The notes beneath the pieces are model-generated. The model did no database searches. It was given only the letters and a program-made list of their open reading frames with translations, and was not told where the DNA came from. Both the position numbers and the translations under genes were made by a program. DNA of 64,000 nucleotides from an uncultured Eubacteriales bacterium (GTDB lineage: Bacteria; Bacillota_I; Bacilli_A; Acholeplasmatales; Anaeroplasmataceae). This document shows positions 4,053 to 53,518 of this stretch, piece by piece (position 1 is the first letter of the stretch; each line of letters starts with the position of its first letter). The stretch is taken from contig CAVCUQ010000005.1 of the NCBI GenBank assembly GCA_963605425.1, positions 3,460 through 67,459 of the forward strand, given 5' to 3'.

Positions 4053-4054
4053 TT

Positions 4055-28996: not shown

Positions 28997-29006
28997 ATTA
29001 AAGCAT

Positions 29007-29078: not shown

Positions 29079-29095
29079 AATAATTTAAAACTAAC

Positions 29096-29126: not shown

Positions 29127-29195
29127 TTACACAATTTTTTCACACTTTTTATTTATTATATAGTATAATTTAGTTAGATATGGAAGGTGAGTATT

Positions 29196-30785: not shown

Positions 30786-30802
30786 TATAAAGGAGACTTT
30801 TT

Positions 30803-32914: not shown

Positions 32915-35900
32915 ATGAAAAAATTAAAGATATTTAAACCTTTAATCTTATTTATTTCACTATTTACTTTTCTTTTAGTTGCAGGTTCTAAAGCTAACAG
33001 TAATATTCTTAACTTAGATAATGTATCTAATATGAGCAATGATACTAAGAGCGAGGAAAATATTACAATTAATAACAAATATTTAGATGTAACTTTAGGA
33101 AGTACTTTAAAACTTGATTATACTACTAAAGGAAATCTAACTATAGATAACTTTTTTGTTTATAATCCTAGTGTATTAACAGTTAGTAAGGATGGGGTAA
33201 TTACAGGTAGAAGTAAAGGTACATCACTTGTTAGAATAACTTTAAGTAACGAGTCTATTAAAGATATTTATGTTAATGTTACAGATAATCCTACAAGTGT
33301 ATCTTTAACAAGTAATTTATCTGTTTTAGGTGTAGGTGATACTGCAAAAGTTAGACCTACTTTATCTCCACTAGCATCAAATAGAAATGTAACATACTTT
33401 TCAAGCGATACTAGTAAAGCTACGGTAGATGAAGATGGAGTGGTAACTGCAGTATCTACAGGTGAGGTTAAAATTACAGTTAAGACTATCAACGGACTTA
33501 CAGCTGATTATACATTTACTGTAATTGAAAAAGATACTATGCCTTTCACTACAGATACTTATGAAGTTGATAAGGATTATTCCAATAAGATTTTAGCATT
33601 TACTACAAGTGATGATATTAATTACAAACATATTACGCTTTATGCTAAAAGTAGTGCTACAAATTTTGATGAAGCACCAACATATATCGTTGAATTTGAT
33701 AATATTAGTATAGAAAATACTGGTATAGAGAGTACCGGATCATATGTTCCTGTTTCTATATGGACTGAAGGTTATGTTAATTTTATTTTTAGAATAAAAG
33801 GTGATTTAAAACTTATAGGATTTTCATATCCAGGGATAAGTTGTGAAAGTGTTATTAGCAGCACTAATGTTAATGTAAAATTTGAACTTTTAGATACCAC
33901 ATCAACTATAACTATTGGTCTTGCTGAAAAACTTAATGATAAAGATTCTGATGATGATAGCAATGGAAAAGTTTCATATTCTTTAGGTAATTATGTAAAG
34001 GCTGCAAGTAATTATGATATTTCTAGTTTAACAACTGATATTGAAAACTTAAAAAATGCTGGAGACAAGGTATCATTTACTTTAAATAATTATTTTAATG
34101 ATGAAATTAATATTAATTTTGATTATAAGACTTCAACTGCTTTATTATCTTCTACAACTTCACCTATAATAACTTATTCTAAGACATTTATTGATCTTAC
34201 TCAAAATTACGAAGATACTGTAAATGGTGTTGGTTGTATTACTGATAATCTTTCTATATGTACTGGAGAAGCAGATGATAGAAATAAACAAGTAGTAATA
34301 AGGCTATATGGCTCTGGTACTTGTTCAGTTGTACTTCAAGATAAGAGTAATAATTTTGTCTACGATTATTTTTATTTAAGTGTATTTGCCAATGAAAATA
34401 CTGATTATATTGATATTACACATTTTGTGGTTGAACCATATGGACTCAATACCATATTTAGAGGCCTAGAAGAAAGTATACAAGTTGCATGTTTTTCAGA
34501 ATATACCTTAGTCTCAAGCAATGAAAGCATCTTTACTGTAGATGGTAATAATGTTAAAGGTGTAAGTGAAGGAACAGCTTATTTAATTGCCTATATAACA
34601 AATTATCCTGTTAAACAAGATTCTATCGAACTTACTGTTATAGTAAAAGATGAAGGTGTCACAGTAGATGAAAGTTTAATTACTAATATATCTGTTAATG
34701 ATAAAGTTGATTTAACTAATTGTTTAAGTGTTAGCCCAAGTGATGCAAAATATAAAGATTTAAAAGTCGAAGTTGAAGACAATGGTGTATTATCATTAGA
34801 TGAGTCAACTATGACACTTACTGCTTCAAAGAATGGCTCAGCTAAAGTTACTGTTACTACATATGGTGGAAGCACAAAAGACATAACATTCACTGTATCA
34901 GATCATGTATCTGAAATTAAGAGCGATCTAGAAGAAAGCACTATAATTGAAAATGGAACAACTTTTGATTTAAGTACTCATTTAACAGTATTACCTGCAA
35001 ATGCCTTAAATAAATCTTTAAAGTTTGAATCAAGTGATACTGAAATAGCTACTGTAGATGAAAATGGTTTAATTACTACTTTAAGTAAGGGTATATTTAA
35101 TATTACAGTAACCTCTCTTGATAATGAGAGTGTAAAAAAAGTATTAAAGTTTGAAAGTTATATTAAAGTTACTGAAATTGAAATCGCTAATTTAGATAAT
35201 TACGTTATCTACGATAGAATGACTCTTGATTTAGCTCAGTGTATTAAAGTGTTACCTGAAGAAGCTTCAGATAAGAGGGTTACATATACATCAAGTGATG
35301 AAAAGATTCTTACTGTAACAAGTGATGGTAAAGTAACTGGTGTTACAAGTGGTAAGGCTACAATTACAATTACATCAGTAGATGGTGTAACAAAAGAAAT
35401 AGAGTTTGAAAGCTATATTTATGTAGAAAATATTATTGTAGAAAATCTAGATTCTTATGTGATTAAAGATAAAGCTTCTTTTAATTTAGCTGATAAGGTA
35501 AGTGTTTTACCTGCAGACGCCTCAAACAAGACTTTAACATATACTTCAAGCGATGAAAGTATACTTACTGTAACAACTGATGGCGTAGTAACTGGTGTTA
35601 CTAGTGGTAAAGCTAAAATTATAATAAGTTCAGTAGATAAAAAGAGTGCTGAAGTTGAATTTGAAAGTTATATAAGTGTTACTGATATTACAACTGATTT
35701 AGAGTCATTTGTAATAAAAGATAAAGCAAGTATTGATTTGAATGAAAAATTTAAAGTTTCACCTTTAGATTCTACAAATAAAACTCTAAGTTTCTCATCA
35801 AGTGATACAAGTATATTTAAGATATCAGATGATGGTGTATTAACTGGAGTTACAAGCGGTAAAGCTATTATTACAGTTACTGCAAGCGATAACGTTTCAA

Positions 35901-37594
35901 AAACATTTGAATTTGAAAGTTATATTAGCGCTACAAGCATTGATGTTTCTTTAGAAAAGTATACTTATGAATTAGGTGATACCATTGAACTTGCTAAATA
36001 CTTAACGGTTATGCCAAGCGATTCAACTAACAAGACATTAACTTACAGTATAGATAACACTGAAATTGCAAGTGTATCTGAAACAGGTTTAATTACTACA
36101 TTAAAAACAGGTTCATTTAAAGTAACTATTACTCAAGGAGATATTAATAAAGAATTAGAATTTAAGGTTATTGTTAGTGTAACTGGTATTGAAAAAACTA
36201 ATTTAGATAATTTAAATACAGTAATTGAAAAAGGTAATAACTTAAATATTAGTTCATACTTTAATGTTTTACCAAGTAATTCAACAAATAAGAATGTTAC
36301 ATATTCTGTTTCTGATGAGACTGTTTCTAGTGTAACTGAAGCTGGACTTGTAACTGGATTAAGCAAAGGAACATTCACTTTAACTGTTACAACAGTTGAT
36401 GGAGAGTTCAAAACATCATTTGATTTAGAGGTTTATGTAACTGTTACAGATGTCTATGTAGAAGTTCCTGAAAATACTACATTTAAGGTAAATGATACTT
36501 ATCAAATTAAGGCTCATGTATTACCAGAAGATGCGAATGTGCAAACTCTTTCTTACTATATACCTACAACAAAAGCTAGTGTAAACCAAAGCGGTCTTGT
36601 TACATTTAAACAAACTGGATCTGATAATGGAGAAGTTAAAATCACTATTAGAAGTAGAGAAGGTAATATTGAAAAGACTTTAATTTTATATGTTGTAGAA
36701 CCTGTAACTTCAATTAGTATAACAGGTGAAGAATCTAAGGTTTTACCTATTGGCGAAACATATAAGATGACTTACGAAATTTTACCAAGTAATGCATCTA
36801 ATAAAAATGTTAAATTTACATCAAGTAATTCATCTATTGCAAGTGTATCTGAAAATGGTACTGTTACTAGTAAATCAACTGGTACAGCTACTATAACAGT
36901 TACTACTGTTGATGGCTCTAAGACTGCAAGCATTACTATCTATGCCGGACCTCATGTTGATAGCATCTCAATTAATAATACTGATAGTGAGCTTCATGTT
37001 GGTGATAAAGTTCAAATTAAGGTTACTATTAGTCCAAGTGACGCGTCCCTTCAAACATTTACTTATTCAACAAGTAATTCTGAAATTGCAAGCATTACAG
37101 AAGCTGGTGTAGTTACAGCTTTAAAAACAGGACAAGTTAGAATTACAGTTACAACTTTAGATGAAGGAAAATCTGCTAGTGTTACATTCAATATAAAGAA
37201 TGTTCAAGATAAACCGGAAGAATTAAAGGTAACAAGTGTTGAAGTATATAATGATTCAATTGTAATTTTAAATCCTTTAAGCACTGTAGAATATAGACTT
37301 GTTGATAGTAACAATAATGTTATTGTTGATTGGAATAATGCTATCATTAATAATAAGATAACATTTAGTAATTTAAGTGATAATACAACTTATGTGATTG
37401 AATATAGAACTCCAGGGACTCCATATAAGGACGCTTCTGATTCATTAACACTATCTGTTAAGACATTAAAGAATGAATATGTAAAACTTCCTACAGTCGC
37501 TATCGTATTCATTATCATCGGAGGAGTAGCCGTTTTAGGTGCAGGAGCATTCTTCATTATTAAAGGTATAAAGAAGAAAAAGAAAAATATTTAA
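32915..37594 (+). CDS. giant surface protein with ~13 Big_2 (bacterial Ig-like group 2) domains, signal peptide and C-terminal TM anchor
   Basis: N-terminal signal sequence. The unit V(L/S)P-x-(D/N)A(S/T)NK-x-(L/V)-x-(Y/F)-x-SS(D/N)-x-x-IA(S/T)V-x-x-x-G-x-VT-x-x-x-x-G-x-x-x-ITVT(S/T) recurs. The C-terminus is VAIVFIIIGGVAVLGAGAFFII-KGIKKKKKNI. Confidence 0.85.
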   Translation: MKKLKIFKPLILFISLFTFLLVAGSKANSNILNLDNVSNMSNDTKSEENITINNKYLDVTLGSTLKLDYTTKGNLTIDNFFVYNPSVLTVSKDGVITGRSKGTSLVRITLSNESIKDIYVNVTDNPTSVSLTSNLSVLGVGDTAKVRPTLSPLASNRNVTYFSSDTSKATVDEDGVVTAVSTGEVKITVKTINGLTADYTFTVIEKDTMPFTTDTYEVDKDYSNKILAFTTSDDINYKHITLYAKSSATNFDEAPTYIVEFDNISIENTGIESTGSYVPVSIWTEGYVNFIFRIKGDLKLIGFSYPGISCESVISSTNVNVKFELLDTTSTITIGLAEKLNDKDSDDDSNGKVSYSLGNYVKAASNYDISSLTTDIENLKNAGDKVSFTLNNYFNDEININFDYKTSTALLSSTTSPIITYSKTFIDLTQNYEDTVNGVGCITDNLSICTGEADDRNKQVVIRLYGSGTCSVVLQDKSNNFVYDYFYLSVFANENTDYIDITHFVVEPYGLNTIFRGLEESIQVACFSEYTLVSSNESIFTVDGNNVKGVSEGTAYLIAYITNYPVKQDSIELTVIVKDEGVTVDESLITNISVNDKVDLTNCLSVSPSDAKYKDLKVEVEDNGVLSLDESTMTLTASKNGSAKVTVTTYGGSTKDITFTVSDHVSEIKSDLEESTIIENGTTFDLSTHLTVLPANALNKSLKFESSDTEIATVDENGLITTLSKGIFNITVTSLDNESVKKVLKFESYIKVTEIEIANLDNYVIYDRMTLDLAQCIKVLPEEASDKRVTYTSSDEKILTVTSDGKVTGVTSGKATITITSVDGVTKEIEFESYIYVENIIVENLDSYVIKDKASFNLADKVSVLPADASNKTLTYTSSDESILTVTTDGVVTGVTSGKAKIIISSVDKKSAEVEFESYISVTDITTDLESFVIKDKASIDLNEKFKVSPLDSTNKTLSFSSSDTSIFKISDDGVLTGVTSGKAIITVTASDNVSKTFEFESYISATSIDVSLEKYTYELGDTIELAKYLTVMPSDSTNKTLTYSIDNTEIASVSETGLITTLKTGSFKVTITQGDINKELEFKVIVSVTGIEKTNLDNLNTVIEKGNNLNISSYFNVLPSNSTNKNVTYSVSDETVSSVTEAGLVTGLSKGTFTLTVTTVDGEFKTSFDLEVYVTVTDVYVEVPENTTFKVNDTYQIKAHVLPEDANVQTLSYYIPTTKASVNQSGLVTFKQTGSDNGEVKITIRSREGNIEKTLILYVVEPVTSISITGEESKVLPIGETYKMTYEILPSNASNKNVKFTSSNSSIASVSENGTVTSKSTGTATITVTTVDGSKTASITIYAGPHVDSISINNTDSELHVGDKVQIKVTISPSDASLQTFTYSTSNSEIASITEAGVVTALKTGQVRITVTTLDEGKSASVTFNIKNVQDKPEELKVTSVEVYNDSIVILNPLSTVEYRLVDSNNNVIVDWNNAIINNKITFSNLSDNTTYVIEYRTPGTPYKDASDSLTLSVKTLKNEYVKLPTVAIVFIIIGGVAVLGAGAFFIIKGIKKKKKNI
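34900..37180 (+). repeat. tandem domain-encoding repeats, period 252-255 nt
   Basis: The linker motif TTTGAAAG(T/C)TAT recurs at 35150, 35405, 35660 and 35912; neighbouring units are closely similar. Confidence 0.8.
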
Positions 37595-37613: not shown

Positions 37614-38138
37614 ATGAAAAAACATAAAATTTTAATATTAATATTTACATTCTTAAGTATTCTTTCTTTATCAGCTTGTAAGATTGAAAAAAATAGTGAT
37701 TTTACTGTTGTAGTACCTGAAAAAGTACTTATGGGTGATAATTCATTAGAAGGTTTTAAGATTGTTAAAGATGATAAGGAAATAGCTCTTGAAAAAGATA
37801 TGCTTACATCTGATTCCCTTCTAGCGTTCTACAAAGAAGGAAAAGAAGAGATTACAGTTACTTACCAAAATATTACTAAAAAAGTTGAGATTAATGTTGT
37901 AAGAAGAATTTTTGATTCATCTGTAAACTTAAGTGATAAAACGTATGAATATACAGGTGAGCCTATTATAGTTACTGTAGATGGTATTTTGCCTGCAGAT
38001 GTAACTATATACTATCCTTTAGGTAATAGTTTTACAAATGTTGGTGAATATAATATCACAGCTATTGTTTCAGCTCCTTATTACACTACATTAACATTTA
38101 ACGCGACTGTAAAAATTGTTGAAAGTGAGGCGGAATAA
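37614..38138 (+). CDS. lipoprotein (174 aa), T4SS-operon associated
   Basis: Signal peptide with lipobox LSLSAC; 19 nt after the preceding gene; TAATG overlap with the next gene. Confidence 0.7.
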   Translation: MKKHKILILIFTFLSILSLSACKIEKNSDFTVVVPEKVLMGDNSLEGFKIVKDDKEIALEKDMLTSDSLLAFYKEGKEEITVTYQNITKKVEINVVRRIFDSSVNLSDKTYEYTGEPIIVTVDGILPADVTIYYPLGNSFTNVGEYNITAIVSAPYYTTLTFNATVKIVESEAE

Positions 38139-40591
38139 TGAAAAAAGTTAAATTTATCGGCCTTGTTCAAGCTATTATATTAATTATTACCGCTATTAGT
38201 GTTACTTTATTCTTAAACTTTAATCTGATGCTTAATGGATCTAATTGGATTAAGTGGTTTATATTCTGGTGGGTACTTGCTTCATTACTATCTAATGTAT
38301 TATTATCAAATAAATTTGCATCAGGTGTAGCTCAGGAGTGGGTATTCTATATATCAATTGGTGTTTTAATATCATCAATTATAGCTTATATTCTATTCTC
38401 ATTTATATTCTCTAATTTTAATTATAACAATATGGACTGGGTTGGATCTTTACAAGCTATTATTGTTGTTGATTTTAGATACTACGGAATCTTACTTGGT
38501 GTATTTATCGGATTTAGTGCTCTTTATTTCTCATTCTTTGATAGACAAATGCTTAAAGGCTTCAAAGGCGGATCAGGACTTGGTGGTAAGGGTAAATTAA
38601 ACAGAGTAGATGCTAACCTTGAAAATTCTCGTTGGATGACTAATGAAGAACGTTTAAAGATTTTTAAGAACTATAAATATGAAGAATTAAAAACTGTTAA
38701 AAAAGATGGTGTTCCTGTTATGGCAAAGATGGACGCTAAAGAAAAAGGTATGCAAGTAGCTTTCTCATCTCCATCTCATGGTCTAATTATCGGTTCTACA
38801 GGTTCAGGTAAAACTACAACATTCGTAAACCCAATGATTCAACTTTTAGCTACAACTGAAGCTGGTTCATCAATGATTATGACTGACCCTAAGGGTGAAC
38901 TATTCTCTCTTCATTCTAAATATTTAGTTGAAAGAGGATATGATGTTAAGGTTATTGATTTAAGAGATACTTATCAATCTTATAGATGGAACCCTCTAGA
39001 TTCTATTTATGATATGTATGAAGAATATCGTAATGTTTATAAACAAGCATTTGAAAGAACTGATTCCTTTGAAAGTTCTGGTCTTGAAAAGGCTAATCCT
39101 AAAGATGATTTTACAAATGTAACTAAATGGTACGAATTCCAAAATAAAGCATATGTATCTTATGAATCATTAGTTCTTGGTATGAAGATTTATAAGAAAC
39201 AATTATTTGATGAAGTTTATGAAAATCTAAATGACTTAACAAGCGTACTTATTCCTATTGAGAATGAAAAAGACCCAATGTGGGAAAAAGGTGCTCGTGC
39301 TATAACTCTTGCCGTATTACTTGCGATGCTAGAAGATAGTGAAATTGAAGAAATGCATATGACAAAAGACAAGTTTACATTCTTCAACTTAACTAAGATT
39401 TTACAAAACTCTAATAAAGATTATCTAGAACTTAGAAAATATTTCCAAGGTAGAAGTCCATTAAGTAAAGCTTTATCACTATCTAAACAAGTGTGTGACG
39501 CAGCTGAATCTACAAGAGCTTCATATATGTCAGTTGTTTATGAAAAGTTAACTTTATTTAATGACTCAGGTATTTGTGGTCTTACAAGTTCATCAGATTT
39601 TACTCCTAAGAGTTTAACTGAAAAACCAACAGCTTTATTCTTAAAGATTCCTGATGAAAAGACTACTCGTCATAATCTAGCTGCTATCTTTATTCTAGAT
39701 TTATATAAATCACTAATTAAAGTAGCTTCAGCTAATGAAGATTTATCATTACCTAGAAATGTATACTTCATTCTAGACGAATTCGGTAACATGCCTAAGA
39801 TTGAAAACTTTGACAAGATGATTACCGTAGGTCGTTCACGTAAGATTTGGTTCAATATGATTGTTCAATCTTATCAACAATTAAACAATGTTTATGGTGA
39901 TAAGGCTGCAGATATCATTAAAGGTAACTGTGGTATTAAGATGTTTATCGGTTCTAACGACATCGGTACTTGTAAAGAATTCTCAGAACTTTGTGGTAAT
40001 ATCACAGTTGTAACAAAGTCAACTTCATCATCAGATAGAAATGACGGAACTTCTACAAGTAATCAAACTCAAGTAAGACCTTTGATTTATCCTAGTGAAC
40101 TTCAAAGATTAAATAAACAAGGTGATATCGGTAATGCAATTATCGTAACCTTTGGTAACTACCCTTTAAAAACATTCTTTACACCAAGTTTTAAGGTACC
40201 TTTCTATAAGATGGGTACAATGGATACATCAGAATTAAACATGAATTATTTTGATGAACAAGCTGCTTTCTACGACATATCAAAGAGAAATGCTAAAATA
40301 TTTGAAGAAGCAGAAAAGAGAAATGTTGTAAAGAGAGGAAGACCTACAAAGGCTGAAAGCGAAGCTCGTAAAGCAGAGGCTCTAAAGAATGGTACTCCTA
40401 TTAAGAAGCCTAAGCCAAAGAAAGAAAAGAAGCCTAGCGACTTAACTGAAGTAGATAAAATAATGCTTAATAGAAATATTGATTTCTTTGTAAACCAATT
40501 AAAGCTTTATAAAGATGTTTCGAATATTTCTGATACTGAATTAATGAAATTAATTAAAGAAAAAATGAAAGAAGGTGATGATAATGAATAG
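38138..40591 (+). CDS. type IV coupling protein (VirD4/TraG family) with 4 N-terminal TM helices and a basic C-terminal tail
   Basis: Walker A GSTGSGKTT, then MTDPKGELF, YRWNPLD, Walker B YFILDEFGNMP and GRSRKIWFNMIVQSYQQL. Confidence 0.85.
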   Translation: MKKVKFIGLVQAIILIITAISVTLFLNFNLMLNGSNWIKWFIFWWVLASLLSNVLLSNKFASGVAQEWVFYISIGVLISSIIAYILFSFIFSNFNYNNMDWVGSLQAIIVVDFRYYGILLGVFIGFSALYFSFFDRQMLKGFKGGSGLGGKGKLNRVDANLENSRWMTNEERLKIFKNYKYEELKTVKKDGVPVMAKMDAKEKGMQVAFSSPSHGLIIGSTGSGKTTTFVNPMIQLLATTEAGSSMIMTDPKGELFSLHSKYLVERGYDVKVIDLRDTYQSYRWNPLDSIYDMYEEYRNVYKQAFERTDSFESSGLEKANPKDDFTNVTKWYEFQNKAYVSYESLVLGMKIYKKQLFDEVYENLNDLTSVLIPIENEKDPMWEKGARAITLAVLLAMLEDSEIEEMHMTKDKFTFFNLTKILQNSNKDYLELRKYFQGRSPLSKALSLSKQVCDAAESTRASYMSVVYEKLTLFNDSGICGLTSSSDFTPKSLTEKPTALFLKIPDEKTTRHNLAAIFILDLYKSLIKVASANEDLSLPRNVYFILDEFGNMPKIENFDKMITVGRSRKIWFNMIVQSYQQLNNVYGDKAADIIKGNCGIKMFIGSNDIGTCKEFSELCGNITVVTKSTSSSDRNDGTSTSNQTQVRPLIYPSELQRLNKQGDIGNAIIVTFGNYPLKTFFTPSFKVPFYKMGTMDTSELNMNYFDEQAAFYDISKRNAKIFEEAEKRNVVKRGRPTKAESEARKAEALKNGTPIKKPKPKKEKKPSDLTEVDKIMLNRNIDFFVNQLKLYKDVSNISDTELMKLIKEKMKEGDDNE

Positions 40592-43500
40592 AGTTTATAG
40601 AAATGTAATGAGAATATTTACAATTTTATCAATCTTTATCTTATCATTTACCACTTTAAAGAAAGCAATTGTTTTAGCTGAAGGAACAGGTGAACCAACT
40701 AAGGTTGAATTTTTAGATAATAGAGAAAATCAAATTACTGATTCAACTGTTACAATCAAGTCTGATTCAACTAAGGCTTACTTCTATGTAAAGATTTACG
40801 CTGAAAGCGGTAAATTTAATGTTTATCTTGAAACAAGTGATGGTACATTACTTTCAAGTCAAAATGAATATACAGAGATTTCATCTAGTAGCATTTATGC
40901 AACTGGTGAAGTAGATACTGATAAAGGTTATGCACTTGTAAGTATTACTGTAGAAGTAGCTAAGAAAGTTAAAGATTATGTCCAAGTTGAAGACTGTCCT
41001 AACTACTTTTATGTAAGCTTAGTAAAAATTAATAATACTTCCTATAATAGAACACTTACTGTCAATTGTGAAAGTACATATATCTATGAAACTAAACAAA
41101 ATGAAGTTGATAAAGGATATGTACTTAAGTTATATGAATCTATTACAAGTCAAACTCTTATCAATGATTCAAAGAGAGTTGATAATGGTAGAAATAGTGT
41201 TACAAAATTAGATATTAATTTATCTAGTAGTTATAATGCAAAAAGCCAAGCTTTAATTGCAAATAAGTTTGCAAACTATTATGTTTCAACTGAAGGTAAA
41301 CAAGCATGGGATAATAGCTTTAAGTATACATTAGGACTTGTTGAATACAACATGTATAGCGCTAATATTGCTAACCCTATTTATACAACAGCTTATATCA
41401 CAAACACATGGTCAGGTTGGGATTCAGTAAAGCCAGGTAGAAATGCGGCATACGGAGACTCTTCTGATAATTGGAAATTAGATAATAATATTCTAACAAA
41501 GAATATCTTTGAAAAGAGTAACGGAACTCAAAACTGGCATGATCATACCTTTGTAACTAAAGATGGATCAGGTTCTATATATTATTTTGCAGAAAGCTCA
41601 CTTGGTAATACATATTATCAAATAGATAATTCTACTTTAAATAATCCATATTTAACTATCACAAACTATAGTGGTGCTTACAATTATGCAAACTATATAG
41701 CTACTTGTGGAAACTATGAATATACTGACACTGACTGGAAGGGAATATCATACAAGGCAAGTATTGATACTAACCGTAAACTTGATATGAAATCATGGTC
41801 AGCTAAGTCATTTATAGCAGATACTACAGCCCCAACTGTTAGTGGAGCTTATCTTGTCAATTCAAACAAGAAGAAAAACTTTGCAAAAGGCGATAAGGTT
41901 CAAATTGCAGTTAGATTTAGTGAACCAGTTCAAGTACTTGATACTAAGAACTTAAAGATTCAATTAACTACTAATAGTTATAATGCAAATATTAATCCGG
42001 TTCGTTTTGATTATAAATCAGGAAGCGGAACTTATACTTTAATATTTGAAGCCGAATCTAGCAGTTACTCAAGTAAAGAAGTTAATATTACTTCAATCAG
42101 TTCTATTGATTTTATCAATGCAAATGGTGGAAGGGCTGATTCCCTTATTAGAGACTATTCATCTAGTCTTTATACAGGATTAAATAGTAAGAATAAGAAT
42201 AGTCAAAATAATGCTTATTTAAAGAATGGTTATTATAGTGGTTATTCATATTCTACAAGTATTGAATATAATGTTGATACTAGAAGCCCTAAGGTTACAA
42301 TTACTCCAAATACTAAGATTTTAAGTAAAGAAAAGGATATTAGTATTCAATTTGGTAACGTAGGAACTAATGCAACTTTCTATTATAAGTTAATTAAAGA
42401 AGCAGATCTTGCAGGTTATACAGATGAAGATTATGAAAAAGATTTATCTGAACTAGATACAACAAGTGATCATATTATAAGTGATGGAAACAAAACTGGT
42501 AAGTATTATTTCTATTATAAGATTGTAACTTATTACGGAGTTGAAGTTTCTAATAAAGATGATCTTACAAACACTAATAAAAAAGAAGATTATGCTCTTT
42601 TATATGATAATTCTGCACCAGTTTTAACTGATGAAAATGGAAATGTTAAAGATATATTCTATCATCAAAATAGTAAAGATGATAATAATAATATAAAGAA
42701 TGATTCTTATGATTTTACTGTTTATCTTAAAGATTTAGAAGAATCATATGTTGGCGGAAGTGGTAACTTTTGCCGTATTAAGAATATCTCATTTATATAT
42801 TCAGAAAATGATTTTTCTTATAACTCTAATATTGGTTCGATAAATTTATATAGTGATTCTAGTACTTCATATGCAAAGATTAAATGTGATAGCACTAATA
42901 AATACAAATATACATTTACTATTTCATATGATATGATATCTGACACATTAGTCGATAAATCTAGACTATATTCTACTTTATATGTAGGTATTGAAGTTGA
43001 AGATACTTCAGGTAATATTTATACTTATACAAATCAAAATTTTGCAAAAGCTACTCTAAAATTTGATTCACGTACTAAATTAGCAGGTATATTCTCTTAT
43101 CCTGATGAAGAAAACAAAATTTATGGACTTGATGTTTATAAAAAAGGTTCAAGCGTTTCTTTTACTGCAGATAGCAGTGTAGATGTTACAGGTGGCACTT
43201 TTACTGCCTTGGTTTATAAAATCAGCTATTTATCTGATTCTAAGAAAACTCAAAGAGAACTTGTAAGTGATGATTCTAATGTTTACACATTTAGTTCTAG
43301 TGATAAAACAGCTACAATTAAATTTAATCAAAGTGGTTATTATGAATATCAATTTGTATTAAATGATAAAGTATATTCTGAAGCAAATGAGATTTATATT
43401 GGATCAAGTATTGATAACAATGAAACTAGTGATAAAACATATAATACTACTAATAGTGAAGTTGTGATTAATAATGTTTGGTCAACTAATTCACTAATGT

Positions 43501-46500
43501 ATTATTACTATAATGATTCAAGAGTAATTACAGAACGTTATAATGGTGTTGTTAACCCTCAAATGTTCTCATCTAAATCTTACTTACAACAATATATTAA
43601 ATATTATGAATATCAAGATTTATCTTATGTTATTACTACAAGTCAAATAGCTACAAGCTTAAATGGTTCAGCTAGTAGTACTTATCAAAAGGCTACCGGT
43701 GAGACACGTACAGCTTCAACAAATGAAATCTGGATTCGTTATAAAAAAGCAAGTTGGAATTATTCAAATTCCACTACTGAGTGGGTTTATTACTACTATG
43801 GTGAATATAATGGATCTAATGATTATATTAATGTTTTAAATTTATCTCAAAATTTAAAGAATGCGATTAACTCTGTTGTTTCAACTATTGTATCTAAATG
43901 TTCTAATGTTAATCTTGTAACTGAAGAATATTTAAATAATGGTGTACCAACACTTGCGAAGAACCAAGTTCACCCTGATAAAGAAGAAGCTAAGACTAGT
44001 AAATCTGGTATTACTTTACAAAACGTAAACTTTGTTGGAGATGCTGGAATTTATTCCTCTTACAAGACTATTAAAGATAATAATTTCTATTATTTTTCTA
44101 ATTATAAGTTTGTATATACTCCATATACTAAATTCTATTATGCAAATGTAGTAGAAGGTAATAATTTCGTATTTACAAAAGATGACTTACAATCTCTTGA
44201 TGTTACTGGTGATAAAACTTTAAATCATATTCTTGAAAGTGGTACATATGTACTCATTGAAGTTGATGAAAATGGTATTTCAAAAACTTTCATGTATATT
44301 GTTAACTATAAAGACGCACCAGGCTTAAATATTTCTTATTCATCTAAAACAACAACTGATGAGGAATTAACATTAAGTTATGCAAATAACGGTGAAAGAT
44401 TTAACGCAACTAGTTTTGCAATAAAATCATTAGGTGATTCAGTTGATGATTATGCTTATGTAAGAGTTTCTACAAGAAATAGTGTTACAACTTATTATTC
44501 AACTGATTTTAAAGATGGTGAAATAGAAAAAGATCCTGTCTTACTTAAAGATGGTACTTATACAATCTTTGTATCAGATAGATTTGGTAATTCATATTCA
44601 TTCACTGTCTCAGTTAATAGTAGTGACATTAAATATACATTCAATACGTATGATTCTGAATATGTAAGATTTACATGTGAATTAGAAGAAGATGATGTAT
44701 TTAGCTTTAGTATTTCTTTAAATGGTGAAGTAATTACTAATCAATATCAAAAATCTATTAAATTAACTAAATCAGGAACATATATCCTTGCCTTAAATGA
44801 TATCTATGGTAACTCAGTTAATGAAACTGTAGTACTTGAAAGAAAGAATCCAGAGGTTTCATGGTGGTATGTTTCAGGAAACTCTTATGAGAAATTTGAT
44901 GAGACTAGTACAACAGGAGCTATCATTGATAAGATTTCTACATCAAGTTATGAAATCTATACATCTAGCCGTGTTCAATTCCAATATACTGGTGACTATT
45001 CATATCAATTCTCTGATGGTGTAAATTACACACAATCTAGTTATTGGGGAAGCCAAAGAGTAACTATCACTAGTGAAGAATATTTTACAGTAAAGATTTA
45101 TTATACTGATTATGAGGAAGCTCAAGTCACTTATACAGTTATCTTTGATAAAGAAGCAGCTGATATTAAAGCTAGTGTTAATACAAACGAATATACTTAT
45201 AAAGACTTAGAGAAGATATCAATAGGAGATTATAAGATTGATGATATCGGTTTTGATATTAAATCAACTGATTCATTTGGTATCTTAAATAATGGTCAAA
45301 TTTTTTCTAAGAATATTAATTTAAATGTTACTGATGATTCTGGTATTAAAGCTTTAACTATTACTTTAAATGGTAATGCTTTAACTTTAAGCGAAGAAAT
45401 TCAAACTAAGATCTTAAATAAAGATAAGAGTATTAGTTTAATTCTAACTGAAATTGGTAAATATCAAATAACTGCGGTTGATAGACTTGGTAATGAATCT
45501 ACATTTGCATTTGAAAATGTAGAACCTAACTATTTTGGTCTTCATCTTGATGATAATAAAGTAACATTAAATACTAACCCTGAAGAAGCTTTAGAAAAGT
45601 CTAGTTATGGTCATGCATCAATTGTTTATTCATTTAATGAAATTGAACAAATAGTATATCTAATTGATGGAACATATTTTACTATTATTGTTAGAGACAA
45701 TGCATTATATGTGCAATATCTAGGTAATGATGAACATGAAAACTATGGATTAATTGAAAAAACATTAATTAATGATATTACTACAAGTAGTGAATACACT
45801 GAACTTGATGTAGTTTCAATAGATGGAATTAAGTTATCATATAGAAAACTTGATGGTTCATTCTACTTTATGATTACCGCGTTAAACAGTAATGTTCATA
45901 ATGTAGTTTCAAGAACAATCTCTGACTATTCATATGTACCTTTCTACAATAAGGTTGAATTATGTGGAAAATTATCTAGTCTTGACTTTGTTAATAGTGA
46001 TAATAAAGCTGTTAATGTAAATGCTCTAAATGGTTATACTAATTTAGAATTTACAATTAGAAAATCAACTCTTGATTCTGACATCACAAAGATTGAATAT
46101 GCCGAAAATTCAACTAACAACTTTGATAATATTACTTTAAAAGAATTAGATTTAACTAGTGAATTTACATATTACGGTACTGATGATGGTTACTTTAAGT
46201 TTAAAGCAACTAATAAATATGGTATGGTTACATCTTATATTATTAGAGTATTTAGACAATTACTTATCGAAGTGGATGCTAAATATAGTGATAATACTAA
46301 AATATCTTATATTCATGATGGAAGTAGTAGTTATTTCTCAAACAATAAGGTAGTAATTAGATCATTTGATTCTGATAGTAAGTTTACTATTGAAAAAGAA
46401 TCAGAAGAAGTTAAATTTGATGTTACAAGAACTGATGATTATGCAGAAGTTACTATTTCAGGTAATGGCGTATATTTAGTTACAATCGTTGATAATGCAA

Positions 46501-48152
46501 ATAACACAAGAATATTTAACGTAACAATATCAGATGATAGCTTTAACGTTACAAATGATATTTTCAAAGGATTAAGCAAAGATGCGCTTAAGGAATTATA
46601 TTCTAAAGATTTAGTTTCTATTGATAAGTCTTTATTTGATACATATCAAATATATAGAGTAGAAATGGCTTATAAAGATGATGATTACTTAGTATATTAT
46701 GATAATATCTCTCAAGAAAAGATTACTAATATTTCTCTTACAGATTTAGTTGGTTCTCTTGGAGATGGTGTATATAAGATTCGCTTTAGAAATATATGTG
46801 GTACTGAATGCTTAAAAGAAATTCATTATTCAGGAACATCTACTTTAAATGTAGAAAGAATGACTAGAAGTGATTTTGAATATAGTGCTTTAGATATTAA
46901 TAAAATAGATGAAGGTGCTTATTCAAATAACTTAGTTCGCTTTAAGTCAACAGCTAAAACATATGATTTTAAGATCGATGGTAATAAGGTTGATTGTCCT
47001 TATGAATTATCATTCCCTAAGACTACTGCAAGTGGTACTTATACTTATTCAGCTTCTTATGTTGATGAATATGGATTTAAGTATGAATTTACTGTTTACT
47101 TAATTAGACAAAATGTAAATTATACATTATCTAAGGAACCTACTTCAATTAATGGAGTAAATACTGTAAATAGTAATTTCTATATTACATTTGATAGTGA
47201 TTCTTATTCAGGTGATTATATCTTAGATAATTCAGCTATTTATACTTATAATAATAAAGACTTATTAACTAAAGATGGTACTTATTCATTTAATATAAGC
47301 GATAAAGCTGGTAATGTTACATCATTTACTATTAAGAAGGATACAATTGTAGAGTTTACTGCATATGAATCCCAAACAAATAACACTGTGTATAATGGTT
47401 CTGTTTCAAATAACGGAAATGTTGTTATAAGCGGTGCTCAAGGTGAATATGTAAAAGTTGTGAAAGCATGGCTTAATTCGGTTGAAAGAGATGTTTCATC
47501 AAGCTATAATGATAATGGAAAGTGGGAACTATTAATTGAGGACTTAGTAGGTAATCAAACTTACTTTATGTTCTATATTTATACTCACACTATCTCAAGA
47601 TTAGCTTACTCTACACCTTACAATTATAAGTTTAAGACTATTCTTTACACAGATTTATCTGGTAATGCATCTAACTATATTGATAAGGTTATAGATAACA
47701 CATATTATGATTCAATAACATTTGAAGAAAATGGTGAATATTATGTTGAAATGTTATCTAGTGCAACTAATCAAATTATCACATTTGAAATTAGTATTTC
47801 TAATTTAACTCCTGATGTTAAACTTGTTGGTGTTGAAAACGATGGTTCTACGAACAAAGACGTTACACTAACTGGTTATAAATTAGGTGATATCATTAGA
47901 ATTTATAAAGACGGTACATTAACAAACACTATAACTGTTATTTCAGCAACTCAAGCTAGCCCTGTCATCAGTGAAAAGGGTGAGTACACTGTTGAAATTA
48001 CTAATGAGGAAGGTAATGTAACTACACTACATTTTAGAAGACAATATACTGCGAATGCAGCTAGCTCAACTGTTATAGTTGTTGTGCTTTCAGTTATTGC
48101 CGTTGTATTATTTATTGGTCTATTCTCTAGAAAAAGAGAAAAGATAGATTAG
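40575..48152 (+). CDS. giant (about 2520 aa) surface protein with signal peptide, many Ig-like beta-sandwich modules and a C-terminal TM anchor
   Basis: Signal sequence ...KKAIVLAEG. At least 10 modules end in D-x-x-G-N-x-(S/T)-x-(F/Y)-x-(F/V). The C-terminus is STVIVVVLSVIAVVLFIGLF-SRKREKID. The start is probably the ATG at 40578 or 40584, overlapping the T4CP stop. Confidence 0.8.
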   Translation: MMIMNRVYRNVMRIFTILSIFILSFTTLKKAIVLAEGTGEPTKVEFLDNRENQITDSTVTIKSDSTKAYFYVKIYAESGKFNVYLETSDGTLLSSQNEYTEISSSSIYATGEVDTDKGYALVSITVEVAKKVKDYVQVEDCPNYFYVSLVKINNTSYNRTLTVNCESTYIYETKQNEVDKGYVLKLYESITSQTLINDSKRVDNGRNSVTKLDINLSSSYNAKSQALIANKFANYYVSTEGKQAWDNSFKYTLGLVEYNMYSANIANPIYTTAYITNTWSGWDSVKPGRNAAYGDSSDNWKLDNNILTKNIFEKSNGTQNWHDHTFVTKDGSGSIYYFAESSLGNTYYQIDNSTLNNPYLTITNYSGAYNYANYIATCGNYEYTDTDWKGISYKASIDTNRKLDMKSWSAKSFIADTTAPTVSGAYLVNSNKKKNFAKGDKVQIAVRFSEPVQVLDTKNLKIQLTTNSYNANINPVRFDYKSGSGTYTLIFEAESSSYSSKEVNITSISSIDFINANGGRADSLIRDYSSSLYTGLNSKNKNSQNNAYLKNGYYSGYSYSTSIEYNVDTRSPKVTITPNTKILSKEKDISIQFGNVGTNATFYYKLIKEADLAGYTDEDYEKDLSELDTTSDHIISDGNKTGKYYFYYKIVTYYGVEVSNKDDLTNTNKKEDYALLYDNSAPVLTDENGNVKDIFYHQNSKDDNNNIKNDSYDFTVYLKDLEESYVGGSGNFCRIKNISFIYSENDFSYNSNIGSINLYSDSSTSYAKIKCDSTNKYKYTFTISYDMISDTLVDKSRLYSTLYVGIEVEDTSGNIYTYTNQNFAKATLKFDSRTKLAGIFSYPDEENKIYGLDVYKKGSSVSFTADSSVDVTGGTFTALVYKISYLSDSKKTQRELVSDDSNVYTFSSSDKTATIKFNQSGYYEYQFVLNDKVYSEANEIYIGSSIDNNETSDKTYNTTNSEVVINNVWSTNSLMYYYYNDSRVITERYNGVVNPQMFSSKSYLQQYIKYYEYQDLSYVITTSQIATSLNGSASSTYQKATGETRTASTNEIWIRYKKASWNYSNSTTEWVYYYYGEYNGSNDYINVLNLSQNLKNAINSVVSTIVSKCSNVNLVTEEYLNNGVPTLAKNQVHPDKEEAKTSKSGITLQNVNFVGDAGIYSSYKTIKDNNFYYFSNYKFVYTPYTKFYYANVVEGNNFVFTKDDLQSLDVTGDKTLNHILESGTYVLIEVDENGISKTFMYIVNYKDAPGLNISYSSKTTTDEELTLSYANNGERFNATSFAIKSLGDSVDDYAYVRVSTRNSVTTYYSTDFKDGEIEKDPVLLKDGTYTIFVSDRFGNSYSFTVSVNSSDIKYTFNTYDSEYVRFTCELEEDDVFSFSISLNGEVITNQYQKSIKLTKSGTYILALNDIYGNSVNETVVLERKNPEVSWWYVSGNSYEKFDETSTTGAIIDKISTSSYEIYTSSRVQFQYTGDYSYQFSDGVNYTQSSYWGSQRVTITSEEYFTVKIYYTDYEEAQVTYTVIFDKEAADIKASVNTNEYTYKDLEKISIGDYKIDDIGFDIKSTDSFGILNNGQIFSKNINLNVTDDSGIKALTITLNGNALTLSEEIQTKILNKDKSISLILTEIGKYQITAVDRLGNESTFAFENVEPNYFGLHLDDNKVTLNTNPEEALEKSSYGHASIVYSFNEIEQIVYLIDGTYFTIIVRDNALYVQYLGNDEHENYGLIEKTLINDITTSSEYTELDVVSIDGIKLSYRKLDGSFYFMITALNSNVHNVVSRTISDYSYVPFYNKVELCGKLSSLDFVNSDNKAVNVNALNGYTNLEFTIRKSTLDSDITKIEYAENSTNNFDNITLKELDLTSEFTYYGTDDGYFKFKATNKYGMVTSYIIRVFRQLLIEVDAKYSDNTKISYIHDGSSSYFSNNKVVIRSFDSDSKFTIEKESEEVKFDVTRTDDYAEVTISGNGVYLVTIVDNANNTRIFNVTISDDSFNVTNDIFKGLSKDALKELYSKDLVSIDKSLFDTYQIYRVEMAYKDDDYLVYYDNISQEKITNISLTDLVGSLGDGVYKIRFRNICGTECLKEIHYSGTSTLNVERMTRSDFEYSALDINKIDEGAYSNNLVRFKSTAKTYDFKIDGNKVDCPYELSFPKTTASGTYTYSASYVDEYGFKYEFTVYLIRQNVNYTLSKEPTSINGVNTVNSNFYITFDSDSYSGDYILDNSAIYTYNNKDLLTKDGTYSFNISDKAGNVTSFTIKKDTIVEFTAYESQTNNTVYNGSVSNNGNVVISGAQGEYVKVVKAWLNSVERDVSSSYNDNGKWELLIEDLVGNQTYFMFYIYTHTISRLAYSTPYNYKFKTILYTDLSGNASNYIDKVIDNTYYDSITFEENGEYYVEMLSSATNQIITFEISISNLTPDVKLVGVENDGSTNKDVTLTGYKLGDIIRIYKDGTLTNTITVISATQASPVISEKGEYTVEITNEEGNVTTLHFRRQYTANAASSTVIVVVLSVIAVVLFIGLFSRKREKID

Positions 48153-48176: not shown

Positions 48177-48485
48177 ATGTTAAACACTATATTAGCTACA
48201 TCAATCAGTCAAAATGATTTAGACAGAGTCGTTGAACCAATTTTATCATTCTGTAAGGTATTAATTCCAACTATGCTTACAGTTGTTGGTACTGTTGGTG
48301 CAATTTGGGTAATCTTACTATGCGTTAAGTTCTCAAGAGCAGATGATCCACAAGAACATGATAAAGCTAAAAAGGCTTTAAAAAATGCAATTGTTGGTTT
48401 CGTATTAATTTTCATTCTATTAATCATGTTAAATGTTGGTGTTGAAGTTTTCACAGCTTGGTGGAAATCTTACCAAACAGCTTAG
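48177..48485 (+). CDS. small two-TM membrane protein, VirB2/TrbC pilin-like topology
   Basis: 102 aa: a leader-like N-terminus, then two hydrophobic helices separated by the charged loop KFSRADDPQEHDKAKKALKN; GGGAGG RBS. Confidence 0.5.
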   Translation: MLNTILATSISQNDLDRVVEPILSFCKVLIPTMLTVVGTVGAIWVILLCVKFSRADDPQEHDKAKKALKNAIVGFVLIFILLIMLNVGVEVFTAWWKSYQTA

Positions 48486-48493: not shown

Positions 48494-49150
48494 ATGTTTA
48501 AAAATTATATAAGAATAGTATTAGGCCTTGCCTTAAGTCTTTTCTTATTTTGCTTATGTTCTTGCTTCGATCTTGGTTCATATAATGAAGGTTATACAAC
48601 TCAAGACGGAACTAAACAGTGGAAAACTGATTACTACGACTATTTTCCAAATGTAATTATTTATAAAGATTTTAAAGCAACTTCATATAATATGAATTTA
48701 TTCTATAACGAGGCTTCTTATAGTTCTAATCCTATCAGTGAAAATTGTCCGATAGAAGAAGATGCTTACGAAGCTATCGTTATACCAGTTGCAAAAGATC
48801 TAGTTATTGGTGAATTTAGATTCTTTATTGAATCTAGCAAAAGTTGTGTATTAAACACTAGTTTCTATGTTTCTGACAGTGATATTACTATCTCATCTCA
48901 GGGTGATGATAGTAGTACTACTTCAGAAAACACTAAAAAACAATATATTGTTAATGGAAATCCTAGTAAATACACCATTACTTCTAGCAATAAATTTTCA
49001 GATACTAATGTTAAATTTTTATCTCAAGCAGATAAAACTGTAACTAAGGGTAAATATTTGATTTTCTTATTTGAAAATAATATTAGCGAGAACGATGAAA
49101 AATGTAATTTTAGATTTACTAATGTTCTAATTAGTAATGTATCTAAGTAA
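48494..49150 (+). CDS. lipoprotein (218 aa), T4SS-operon associated
   Basis: Signal peptide with lipobox-like LFCLCSC. No other motif. Confidence 0.65.
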   Translation: MFKNYIRIVLGLALSLFLFCLCSCFDLGSYNEGYTTQDGTKQWKTDYYDYFPNVIIYKDFKATSYNMNLFYNEASYSSNPISENCPIEEDAYEAIVIPVAKDLVIGEFRFFIESSKSCVLNTSFYVSDSDITISSQGDDSSTTSENTKKQYIVNGNPSKYTITSSNKFSDTNVKFLSQADKTVTKGKYLIFLFENNISENDEKCNFRFTNVLISNVSK

Positions 49151-49162: not shown

Positions 49163-50548
49163 ATGTTCGATTGGTTTTGGAACTTCTTATATTCTATTTC
49201 AAAGAATATCTATAGAATTATAGATGGTCTGATGAATGTTGCAAACATGATGTGCGGTATTGATCCTATCACTATAAATCAAGAAGAAACTGATTTAATT
49301 TCATATTTATTCAATTCAAATAACGTGCAGTTTGCATTTAAAGCAACAGCTATAATTGGTTTTATTCTTGTAATATTACTATCGGTTATTGCAATTATTA
49401 GAACTGCAGTTAAAGAGAAGGTTGAAGATACTCCTGGTCAAATTTGTATCAAAGCATTTAAGGCAATTATTACTTTTATGTTTGTACCATTTTTGATGAT
49501 TGTTATTGTAAATTTATGTAATGTATTCATGATTGCCTTATATAAAGCCACTCTTGCAGGAAATACAACATTAGGTGACTTTATGTTTGTATCATTTGCC
49601 CAAGATTCTGATTATGAGGCCGCAAACAATCTAGTTAAAGCATTCCCTAATACACAAGTATGGCTTAATACTGATACTGTAAGATCATATATAGATATAA
49701 CTGAGTACAATTATTTCTTTTCATGGCTTGCAGGTGTTGCAATTTTAGTTAATATTGCATGGAGCTTATTACTATTTGTAGATAGAGCTATTTCCCTTGT
49801 TATTCTTTATATCTTATCTCCTTTATCTATAGCTTCAACAGTTGTAGATGGTGGGGCTAGATTTAAGATGTGGAGAGACCAAACTTTGACTAAGTTTGCA
49901 GTAGGTTATGGTACTATTATTGGACTTAATGTTTATTTACTTGTAATTAATGCGATTATCGGAGTTACATTCTTTGAAAATCAATGGCTTAATATGCTTG
50001 TAAAGATCCTATTTATTGTTGGCGGAGCTCTTTCAATGAAGAAGGCTATGGCTCTAGTTGGAAACCTTGTAACTCAAGGTGGTGGTTCTCAAGAATTAAG
50101 AGAGCAAGCTATGGGACGTGGTGCTTTAATGAAGAGTTTAGGTGGATTTGGTTCTGGAGTTTTATCTGCCGGATTTGGCGGAATGAAGGCTGCCTTACAC
50201 CCAGCAGCTACAGCTAGAAATGTAGGTAGTGCTATTGCAAATAAATTCGGATTTGGCTCTTCAGGTGGTCAAAGCGAAGGAAACAAACAACTTGAGGCTC
50301 AAAATAAAACTAATGAATTATTATCTAGCCTATTAAATGGTAACCATAATAATGCATCAGGTATTGGCGGAGGTTCAAACGCTGTTAAGAATGCTATCCA
50401 AAATAGCTCATCTAATGGCGGAGGAAGCGCTAATAATAACATTGTTAATTCAAACAATGATTTAAATGAAAAGACAAGCCAAGCTATAACTAATTCAAAA
50501 CTTGATTCTAATGATAAAGCAAATCAATCAAACCAAAATAAGAAGTAA
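49163..50548 (+). CDS. polytopic membrane protein, VirB6/TrbL-like, with a G/S/N-rich disordered C-terminal tail
   Basis: 5-6 TM helices, then ~160 aa of low complexity (GGGSQ...GFGSSGGQ...SSNGGGSANNN). Its position between the pilin-like gene and VirB4 matches T4SS synteny. Confidence 0.55.
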   Translation: MFDWFWNFLYSISKNIYRIIDGLMNVANMMCGIDPITINQEETDLISYLFNSNNVQFAFKATAIIGFILVILLSVIAIIRTAVKEKVEDTPGQICIKAFKAIITFMFVPFLMIVIVNLCNVFMIALYKATLAGNTTLGDFMFVSFAQDSDYEAANNLVKAFPNTQVWLNTDTVRSYIDITEYNYFFSWLAGVAILVNIAWSLLLFVDRAISLVILYILSPLSIASTVVDGGARFKMWRDQTLTKFAVGYGTIIGLNVYLLVINAIIGVTFFENQWLNMLVKILFIVGGALSMKKAMALVGNLVTQGGGSQELREQAMGRGALMKSLGGFGSGVLSAGFGGMKAALHPAATARNVGSAIANKFGFGSSGGQSEGNKQLEAQNKTNELLSSLLNGNHNNASGIGGGSNAVKNAIQNSSSNGGGSANNNIVNSNNDLNEKTSQAITNSKLDSNDKANQSNQNKK

Positions 50549-53278: not shown

Positions 53279-53500
53279 ATGAATAAAAGATTAGTATTAA
53301 TTCCAGTAAGTTTGCTTGGCATTATGCTTACCTATAAAATGCCACATATAGATCAGATAGAATATAAGAGTGAAAACAACCTTGAAGAGGTAAGTGCTTC
53401 TTGGGATAACAGTATTCAACTTAATTATTTAGAGAATTATAATAAAGCAAGCCAAATTGAAAGCACAAATTTATTAATTGAAAATAAGGAGAACGACTAA
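53279..53500 (+). CDS. small secreted or membrane-anchored protein (73 aa)
   Basis: TATAAT at 53248-53253, AAGGTGA RBS, N-terminal hydrophobic segment LVLIPVSLLGIMLTY, terminator immediately after. Confidence 0.45.
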   Translation: MNKRLVLIPVSLLGIMLTYKMPHIDQIEYKSENNLEEVSASWDNSIQLNYLENYNKASQIESTNLLIENKEND

Positions 53501-53518
53501 ACGTTCTCTTTGTTTTTA
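53489..53518 (+). terminator. intrinsic terminator at the end of the island
   Basis: GAGAACG/CGTTCTC stem followed by TTTGTTTTT. Confidence 0.6.

Follow-up and report, generated by a model that had tools for sequence, protein, structure and literature searches.

A giant, membrane-anchored Ig-like protein encoded in a Mollicutes-type type IV secretion cluster as a candidate cell-contact fibre

Type IV secretion systems (T4SSs) of Gram-positive bacteria are generally described as pilus-less, relying on adhesins that are anchored in the wall through LPXTG, PrgB being an example (PMC12857230), and transfer of the integrative and conjugative elements (ICEs) of Mycoplasma requires the surface lipoprotein CDS14 (PMC6030558). 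The ScARP adhesins of Spiroplasma, which have a role in adhesion to and invasion of insect cells (PMC2386487, PMC3485318), carry a signal peptide and a C-terminal transmembrane helix as well as repeats and a conserved central region (PMC2386487). Patescibacteria (candidate phyla radiation, CPR), such as Southlakia epibionticum, carry a chromosomal T4SS related to MPF_FATA, with PF18895/VirB2-like pilins and usually without a relaxase (10.1101/2025.01.22.634366; PMC12857230). Here we analyse a 64,000-nucleotide stretch of DNA, referred to as the window, from an uncultured Eubacteriales bacterium (GenBank assembly GCA_963605425.1, contig CAVCUQ010000005.1, positions 3,460 to 67,459 of the forward strand), in which a gene for a surface protein of some 2,500 residues, hereafter the giant, lies between the genes for a type IV coupling protein (T4CP) and a pilin-like protein. 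On balance we think it probable that the giant serves this T4SS as a dedicated fibre for cell contact, anchored beside the channel, binding the partner with its variable end and made together with the coupling ATPase. Positions are those of the window, and residue numbers are counted on the giant protein.

The giant is encoded in the sole long frame of its stretch, a plus-strand open reading frame (ORF) at 40575(GTG)..48152, with GTG 40575, ATG 40578 and ATG 40584 as in-frame start candidates. A first-pass annotation of the window had named the two ATG codons; both are in frame, and ATG 40584 is the most likely start because a GGTGA ends 5 nucleotides upstream of it and homologues begin MNKVYRN..., giving a gene at 40584..48152 (plus strand) with a product of 2,522 residues, whose homologues, at 24-99% identity, are colinear with it and have lengths near 2,500 residues. 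That the gene starts within the last codons of the T4CP gene was also read correctly: the T4CP stop, TAG at 40589-40591, lies inside the giant gene, an overlap of 8 nucleotides if ATG 40584 is used. By hydropathy, residues 1 to about 33 (MNRVYRNVMR, a hydrophobic core and ...AIVLA/EG; 40584..40682, plus strand) form a signal peptide with a putative cleavage site, and the same charged-then-hydrophobic N-terminus recurs in 33 loci. The giant is not a lipoprotein, because the signal peptide lacks Cys, the first Cys of the protein being residue 138. Its only other hydrophobic helix, residues 2494-2514 (hydropathy 2.0-3.15), is followed by a predicted cytoplasmic basic tail, SRKREKID (together 48063..48149, plus strand), and both are kept among homologues and in P0012, a distant relative from an element with a MobL relaxase. 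No LPxTG-like motif ([LN]PX[TSA][GANS]) occurs anywhere in the protein; the earlier description of a signal peptide, a C-terminal transmembrane helix with basic tail and no LPXTG thus agrees with hydropathy and motif scan. No PBP transpeptidase was found in the host genome, nor in 6 of 9 related hosts tested, and the host appears to be wall-less. A transmembrane anchor instead of LPXTG would be expected in such a host, since surface proteins of wall-less cells need a lipid or transmembrane anchor.

The giant belongs to a large, widespread family that is unnamed and uncharacterised and is new among T4SS-associated adhesins and fibres. A word-indexed search returned ten relatives of 2,493-3,243 residues at 26-99% identity, and a profile of residues 36-1195, compared with 1.84 billion representatives, gave 1,081 matches at E<1e-3 (141 at E<1e-30), most of them 2,390-2,760 residues long and colinear with the query. 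Complete stop-to-stop ORFs in species genomes (n=21) measure 2,524 +/- 41 residues at 24-65% identity, and tblastn against 72,556 plasmids found no match. Within the host's order the giant is carried by 16 of 301 genomes, which belong to three genera of one family and are patchy within a genus. The order contains 17 genomes with a VirB4 at least 61% identical; all 16 giant carriers are among them, leaving a single genome with a close VirB4 and no detected giant. Giant and VirB4 lie on one contig in 11 of the 16 genomes, draft assembly splitting the others. All hosts are uncultured metagenome-assembled genomes (MAGs), and their submitter taxon labels are unreliable: three contigs of low guanine-plus-cytosine (GC) content that hold the cluster (L015, L017 and L018) are labelled Elusimicrobiaceae, Parabacteroides distasonis and Treponema, which is probably due to mis-binning or mislabelling of the MAGs.

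The order T4CP, giant, pilin-like, (variable gene), VirB6-like and VirB4 is found in 23 of 23 related loci that extend far enough on both sides (7 of 8 loci from an identity look-up and 16 of 32 from species genomes, located via the central domain described below), and shorter loci show partial versions of this core order, none contradicting it. The loci from species genomes range in GC from 0.27 to 0.56, and the related genomes are small, at 0.9-2.1 Mb. From T4CP stop to giant ATG the distance is -23 to +16 nucleotides in 32 of 33 loci, a tight and conserved junction that supports co-expression, and the pilin-like gene lies directly 3' of the giant in every related locus that extends downstream. 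The first-pass annotation had suggested looking for orthologues beside VirD4 and VirB4 genes, and in every relative examined the giant is syntenic with both. Its tracking of VirB4, together with the conserved junction and gene order, marks the giant as a fixed part of the T4SS cluster.

Identity to the window across loci is 58-90% for the T4CP and 63-90% for VirB4, as against 26-65% for the giant, and this faster divergence is typical of an exposed surface part. Might the giant then be a general colonisation adhesin of the ScARP kind, attaching to mucus, epithelium or food particles and riding in the operon with no part in secretion or transfer? Its N-terminus is fast-evolving, the operon encodes a second tail-anchored surface protein, with Big_2 domains and of variable length, and Spiroplasma plasmids have an adhesin gene in the same slot, the ScARPs acting in insect-cell adhesion and invasion (PMC2386487, PMC3485318). 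However, cargo adhesins come and go, as the Big_2 protein does, whereas the giant is present in every locus and follows VirB4 nearly one to one, its gene overlaps or abuts that of the T4CP, and its length and domain order are kept across hosts of 27-56% GC. We regard a colonisation adhesin as unlikely.

The architecture of the giant was examined half by half. The first-pass annotation had quoted seven DxxGN strands, and all seven were located in the protein, at residues 1332, 1406, 1633, 1970, 2240, 2320 and 2474, with an eighth at residue 807. The strict motif occurs 5 times, compared with 0.08 expected by shuffling and a maximum of 3 in 2,000 shuffles. A hidden Markov model (HMM) built from the motif modules adds one variant module, residues 2096-2172 (E 3e-4), which is its sole new information, the model being circular for its training modules. 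About nine motif modules are recognisable, of 75-88 residues each and irregularly spaced; the earlier claim of 10 or more, all closing with the motif, was overstated, though the modules themselves are real. An AlphaFold2 (AF2) model of residues 1290-2489, made with an 8-sequence alignment, has a predicted local distance difference test score (pLDDT) of 74.9 and is almost pure beta. Searched against the PDB with Foldseek, it matches the grappling-hook protein GhpA best (1.4e-17), followed by contactins, S-layer proteins (SbsB, SbsC, Sap and EA1) and alpha-2-macroglobulins, with TM-scores of about 0.1 that indicate a fold type and no specific relative. As modelled, the C-terminal half is an immunoglobulin (Ig)-like beta-sandwich array, and the fold check by AF2 and Foldseek did not refute the original proposal of Ig-like modules. 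Together with the motif statistics, these results suggest about 12 Ig-like beta-sandwich domains at residues ~1200-2487 (44181..48044, plus strand).

Family searches add little to this picture. The Pfam family BiPBP_C (PF06832) scores 20 bits on the giant at residues 1360-1412, below its gathering threshold of 26.8 bits, and matches 6 of 10 homologues at E<=0.01 (best 1.6e-7), which indicates a distant relationship only. Across the giant and nine homologues, the Pfam scan yielded only weak matches, to BiPBP_C, Calx-beta and Receptor_2B4, and no polymer adhesin domain of the GbpC or antigen I/II type; NCBIfam has no family match for the giant, and neither half of the protein, nor the central domain alone, matched a PDB sequence in profile searches, even at E 10. 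The S-layer proteins among the Foldseek matches bear on another explanation, in which the giant serves in surface exclusion or shielding, or forms an S-layer-like coat, and would prevent redundant mating or protect the wall-less cell. Gram-positive transfer operons do encode surface-exclusion proteins. The matches, however, are to generic beta-sandwich arrays at TM-scores of about 0.1, a single-copy gene with a patchy distribution within the genus is ill-suited to a cell coat, and nothing links the giant to exclusion; we consider this explanation very improbable.

The N-terminal half is of a different character. The first-pass annotation recognised no motif in the N-terminal 1,200 residues, and a check against characterised adhesin and enzyme families likewise found none. 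The same annotation called this region Y/N/S/T-rich; the N-terminal half is only slightly richer in N, S, T and Y than the C-terminal half (41.7% versus 36.7%). Foldseek matches it to MG/FN3/Ig arrays of a generic kind, at TM-scores near 0.1, and as candidate relatives these carry little weight. The most variable part, residues ~34-400 (40683..41783, plus strand), is beta-rich, with an AF2 model that is partly confident at residues ~36-185; conservation against distant homologues is lowest in the first 400 residues, at 0.12-0.19, and we suggest residues ~34-400 as the candidate distal or ligand-binding end. A putative Ig-like domain with the signature FIADTTAP...VRFSEPVQV follows at residues ~400-495 (41781..42068, plus strand), supported by profile matches and by AF2 strands of pLDDT 70-80, and profile positions ~365-475 match 10-25 tandem stretches within unrelated giant proteins. 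The best-conserved part of the protein is a central alpha/beta domain, residues ~950-1165 (43431..44078, plus strand), delimited by conservation and modelled by AF2 at low confidence with helices. Its conservation against distant homologues is 0.34-0.48 with 38 invariant columns, its signature reads FSS..YL..YIKYYEYQDL ... WIRYKK ... W.YYYYG, with WIRYK and EYQD invariant, and it has no Pfam or PDB match. Next best conserved are the last ~500 residues, including the transmembrane helix.

No tandem DNA repeats occur in the giant gene, and its domains are therefore individually orthologous rather than recent copies. Constant length, colinearity and the lack of tandem repeats point to a defined architecture and not to an expandable repeat adhesin. 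The same properties would suit a structural element that is no adhesin, namely a scaffold, a sheath or ruler for a VirB2-like filament, or a conduit-forming oligomer whose assembly is mediated by the central domain: length is constant at about 2,500 residues, each domain is non-repetitive and has its own orthologue in the relatives, conservation peaks in the internal alpha/beta domain rather than at the tip, and the C-terminal transmembrane helix and tail are conserved. Yet the relatives in MobL elements have about 1,600 residues and others 3,243-5,403, so no single length is required; there is no sign of oligomerisation, and the giant diverges much faster than the channel proteins. We would give a purely structural role little chance.

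How might a contact fibre of this kind operate? We propose that the giant is a core component of a Mollicutes-type (MPF_FATA-like) T4SS. Its gene would share a transcript with that of the coupling ATPase, probably with translational coupling as well, and this would fix the stoichiometry and timing of both products. After Sec export the giant would stay in the membrane through its C-terminal helix, beside the VirB6-like, pilin-like and VirB4 channel proteins. Its ectodomain of ~2,450 residues, predicted to comprise about two dozen mostly Ig-like beta-sandwiches interrupted by the conserved alpha/beta domain, would reach tens of nanometres out from the wall-less cell. Binding to the partner cell would fall to the fast-evolving N-terminus, and the conserved membrane-proximal part and transmembrane helix would hold the fibre on the machine, bringing contact and substrate transfer to one site. 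We infer, in short, that the giant is displayed on the surface, extended, adhesive and associated with the channel.

Several points weigh against this proposal. The adhesive role is argued from position, topology and analogy, and no binding domain is identifiable in the giant. The AF2 model of the N-terminal half (residues 36-1235), beta-rich with helices in the central domain, reaches a pLDDT of 51.6. Strict length conservation could mean a structural or ruler role rather than adhesion. The suggestion in the first-pass annotation that the giant replaces a pilus fits poorly with the VirB2-like pilin gene that always lies directly 3' of it. For a version of the proposal that involves mating, the difficulty is that MobL, PF03432, PF01076 (Mob_Pre) and PF02486 (Rep_trans) relaxases are all missing from the 99%-complete host genome, a search that left MOBF, MOBH, MOBC and MOBB untested. 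The giant had originally been put forward as a possible mating adhesin; a syntenic T4SS contact fibre remains the favoured description, and the 'mating' part is weakened, no relaxase of the four families being found in locus or genome.

The machine may transfer DNA, by conjugation or by mycoplasma-like chromosomal transfer, or it may act otherwise. The VirB4, VirD4 (T4CP) and VirB6-like genes of a conjugative T4SS are all present in the cluster, and MobL, PF03432 and Rep_trans relaxases are absent in 17 of 20 related genomes. The ORF at 26569-27843 was considered as a MobL relaxase and shows no similarity. The cluster is flanked by ybeY-cdd-era-recO on one side and clpB/znuA on the other, the clpB/znuA side being common to close relatives; two genomes without the cluster have unrelated genes at the same site; and VirB4 identity is not ordered by genus, being 78-79% in another genus and 64% in two genomes from the genus of the host. 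Site comparison, the shared flank and the distribution of VirB4 identity across genera together indicate past horizontal movement. Recent insertion, on the other hand, is unsupported by base composition, GC being uniform across the window and the loci spanning 0.27-0.56, and if each cluster matches its host, that range suggests long residence in hosts of differing composition. Pfam detected no recombinase within 26.5-53.6 kb, an interval in which four upstream ORFs lack annotation. A tRNA-Glu(CTC) at 29006-29079, between two unannotated ORFs and 5' of the block of surface-protein and T4SS genes, could be an old integration site, but no direct repeat of at least 11 nucleotides, as expected of an attachment (att) site, links it to the right edge at 53.2-53.6 kb. 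Uniform GC, with no recombinase, att-like repeat or relaxase of the families searched having been found, argues against the cluster being a recently acquired or still active mobile element. Elsewhere in the host genome, at the edge of contig C6 (205-1068), lies a gene for a 287-residue HExxH (HETGHA) protein that is 31% identical (E 3e-30) to the 329-residue product of a gene in the MobL element of locus L009, perhaps an anti-restriction (ArdC-like) protein left behind by another mobile element.

A further reading takes the giant as the contact arm of a domesticated, non-conjugative T4SS in wall-less, genome-reduced gut and rumen bacteria, Acholeplasmatales-like and their neighbours. The machine would then serve contact-dependent exchange, importing DNA or nucleotides or exporting proteins. 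We hold this reading to be doubtful; if true, Bacillota would have an equivalent of the Patescibacteria T4SS, equipped with a giant, Ig-like and membrane-anchored tether that has not been reported in CPR.

Around the giant, the cluster contains the following genes, all on the plus strand. The second tail-anchored surface protein (32915..37594; 1,559 residues) has at least 10 Big_2 domains (PF02368, 8.8e-107) and, like the giant, a signal peptide and a C-terminal transmembrane helix, with transmembrane-like segments at residues 3 and 1521. Among close relatives its length runs from 431 to 1,559 residues (1,559 in the window, 431-1,358 in relatives), and it is absent in distant loci. Tandem Repeats Finder (TRF, score >=50) found no tandem DNA repeat in its gene, and its units are therefore not near-identical at the DNA level. 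Directly 5' of the T4CP gene, 37614..38138 encodes a 174-residue lipoprotein (lipobox LSLSAC), which is homologous to the N-terminal ~180 residues of larger proteins in the same slot of distant loci, such as those of L001 (4790-7438; 882 residues with MBG_3 domains) and L004 (1419-7472; 2,017 residues); it appears to be a conserved domain, either free-standing or fused. The VirD4-type T4CP itself (38138..40591; 817 residues; PF02534 4.8e-56, PF12696 1.9e-34, PF10412 1.8e-27) has N-terminal transmembrane segments and a Lys-rich C-terminal tail, and its identity in related loci is 58-91%. Within that tail (40238-40591) is an AT-hook-like KRGRPTK, compatible with DNA binding, though no relaxase was found.

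Downstream of the giant, 48177..48485 encodes a predicted VirB2-like/pilin-like two-transmembrane hairpin of 102 residues, for which the matches to PF18895 (1.3e-9) and to the NCBIfam Mbov_0395 family (6.7e-12) agree with the pilin-like gene called from sequence in the first reading. The variable gene follows at 48494..49150, coding for a fast-evolving putative lipoprotein of 218 residues with an N-terminal hydrophobic segment containing Cys residues; its identity in relatives is 24-59% or undetectable. A VirB6-like polytopic membrane protein (49163..50548; 461 residues; NCBIfam MMCAP2_0566 1.4e-38, Mbov_0396 2.2e-33) has six transmembrane-like segments and a G/S/N-rich tail, and a VirB4-type ATPase (50560..53202; 880 residues; PF19044 1.5e-21) has transmembrane-like helices at residues 12 and 31. 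The nearest plasmid relatives of this VirB4 are Spiroplasma Mbov_0397-family ATPases, and the families of the pilin-like, VirB6-like and VirB4 proteins are the ones known from Mycoplasma ICEs and Spiroplasma plasmids. After VirB4 comes a small ORF at ~53279-53509 (~76 residues, with an N-terminal hydrophobic segment); a 76-residue gene occupies the same place in locus L007, and in L005 a 75-residue gene lies some 1 kb beyond VirB4. A further conserved gene, of ~860 residues, follows VirB4 in distant loci (L001 22884-25466; L006 22253-24826; 40% mutual identity); it is not in the window cluster, has a weak match in the host's own genome on contig C66 (E 6e-6) and, in its L001 copy, lacks a Pfam match. 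At the other end, the four ORFs in 26569-32752, between recO and the Big_2 gene (424, 349, 532 and 649 residues), have no significant Pfam, NCBIfam or PHROGs match, and only the 649-residue one has homologues in related loci (37-46% in L003 and L005). For the ORFs neighbouring the giant, PHROGs named nothing useful.

What would a contact fibre of this design add? To our knowledge, the small lipoprotein CDS14 alone is known to start mating in wall-less Mollicutes. Besides LPXTG adhesins and CDS14, the giant would represent a third solution, a family of membrane-anchored, Ig-like fibres of about 2,500 residues whose gene is firmly linked to that of the coupling protein and has a VirB2-like pilin gene as its neighbour, in clusters mostly without a recognisable relaxase. 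The hosts are abundant, uncultured, small-genome bacteria of gut and rumen. Definition of the family provides a marker for this type of T4SS and a handle on whether such machines move DNA or do otherwise, and the variable N-terminus is a candidate determinant of partner specificity.

Among described systems, CDS14 of Mycoplasma ICEA and ICEB is comparable as an element-encoded surface protein of a wall-less bacterium that starts T4SS transfer (PMC6030558), and the CDS15, CDS16 and CDS17 families of its module match the pilin-like, VirB6-like and VirB4 proteins of the window. CDS14 is, however, a small lipoprotein, whereas the giant appears to be transmembrane-anchored without a lipobox Cys and is matched by no NCBIfam ICE family; the Mycoplasma ICEs also carry a DDE transposase, and none was seen at the window cluster. 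The Spiroplasma plasmid adhesins (ScARP/SARP1) share more of the arrangement: their gene lies directly 5' of an Mbov_0395 pilin-like gene, followed by VirB6-like and VirB4, the NCBIfam families of the T4SS proteins are shared, and the adhesins have a signal peptide and a C-terminal transmembrane anchor in a wall-less host. They differ in size and build (683-861 residues with 39-42-residue sarpin repeats, against 2,522 residues of Ig-like domains), in the T4CP gene, which comes after VirB4 and not before the adhesin gene, and in their known role, which is insect-cell adhesion and not mating; BLASTP between the giant and a Spiroplasma plasmid adhesin detected no similarity (best E 1.4).

PrgB, the aggregation substance of pCF10, offers a functional parallel, being a dedicated adhesin through which a monoderm T4SS, instead of using a retractile pilus, forms mating pairs (PMC12857230). 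It is anchored by sortase via LPXTG and binds lipoteichoic acid through a polymer adhesin domain, whereas the giant has neither and its host has no apparent wall. With the CPR systems the window cluster shares a chromosomal location, a PF18895 pilin within the VirB4 cluster, the absence of a relaxase of the four families searched and a genome-reduced monoderm host. In contrast to the window, a survey found no adhesins in CPR clusters (10.1101/2025.01.22.634366; PMC12857230), and the hosts here are Acholeplasmatales-like gut bacteria in which the cluster is patchy within a genus and nothing suggests essentiality or epibiont life.

A true, though distant, homologue is P0012, with 1,623 residues (E 4e-16), from an element with a MobL relaxase in which its gene lies between those for the T4CP and the pilin-like protein. 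It stands for a large family of proteins of about 1,600 residues from gut Clostridiales and Bacilli MAGs, all annotated as 'hypothetical', which share with the giant the DxxGN Ig-like modules, the last domain, the transmembrane anchor and the slot. They are about 900 residues shorter, and the element carries, besides the relaxase, anti-restriction-type and methylase genes. A shared central domain was considered and set aside, the hhalign comparison with P0012 being not significant (E 0.63) though two motifs line up. Because this distant homologue sits in a MobL-relaxase element, the protein type to which the giant belongs would seem to come from conjugative elements, with the ~2,500-residue branch now found in largely relaxase-less clusters.

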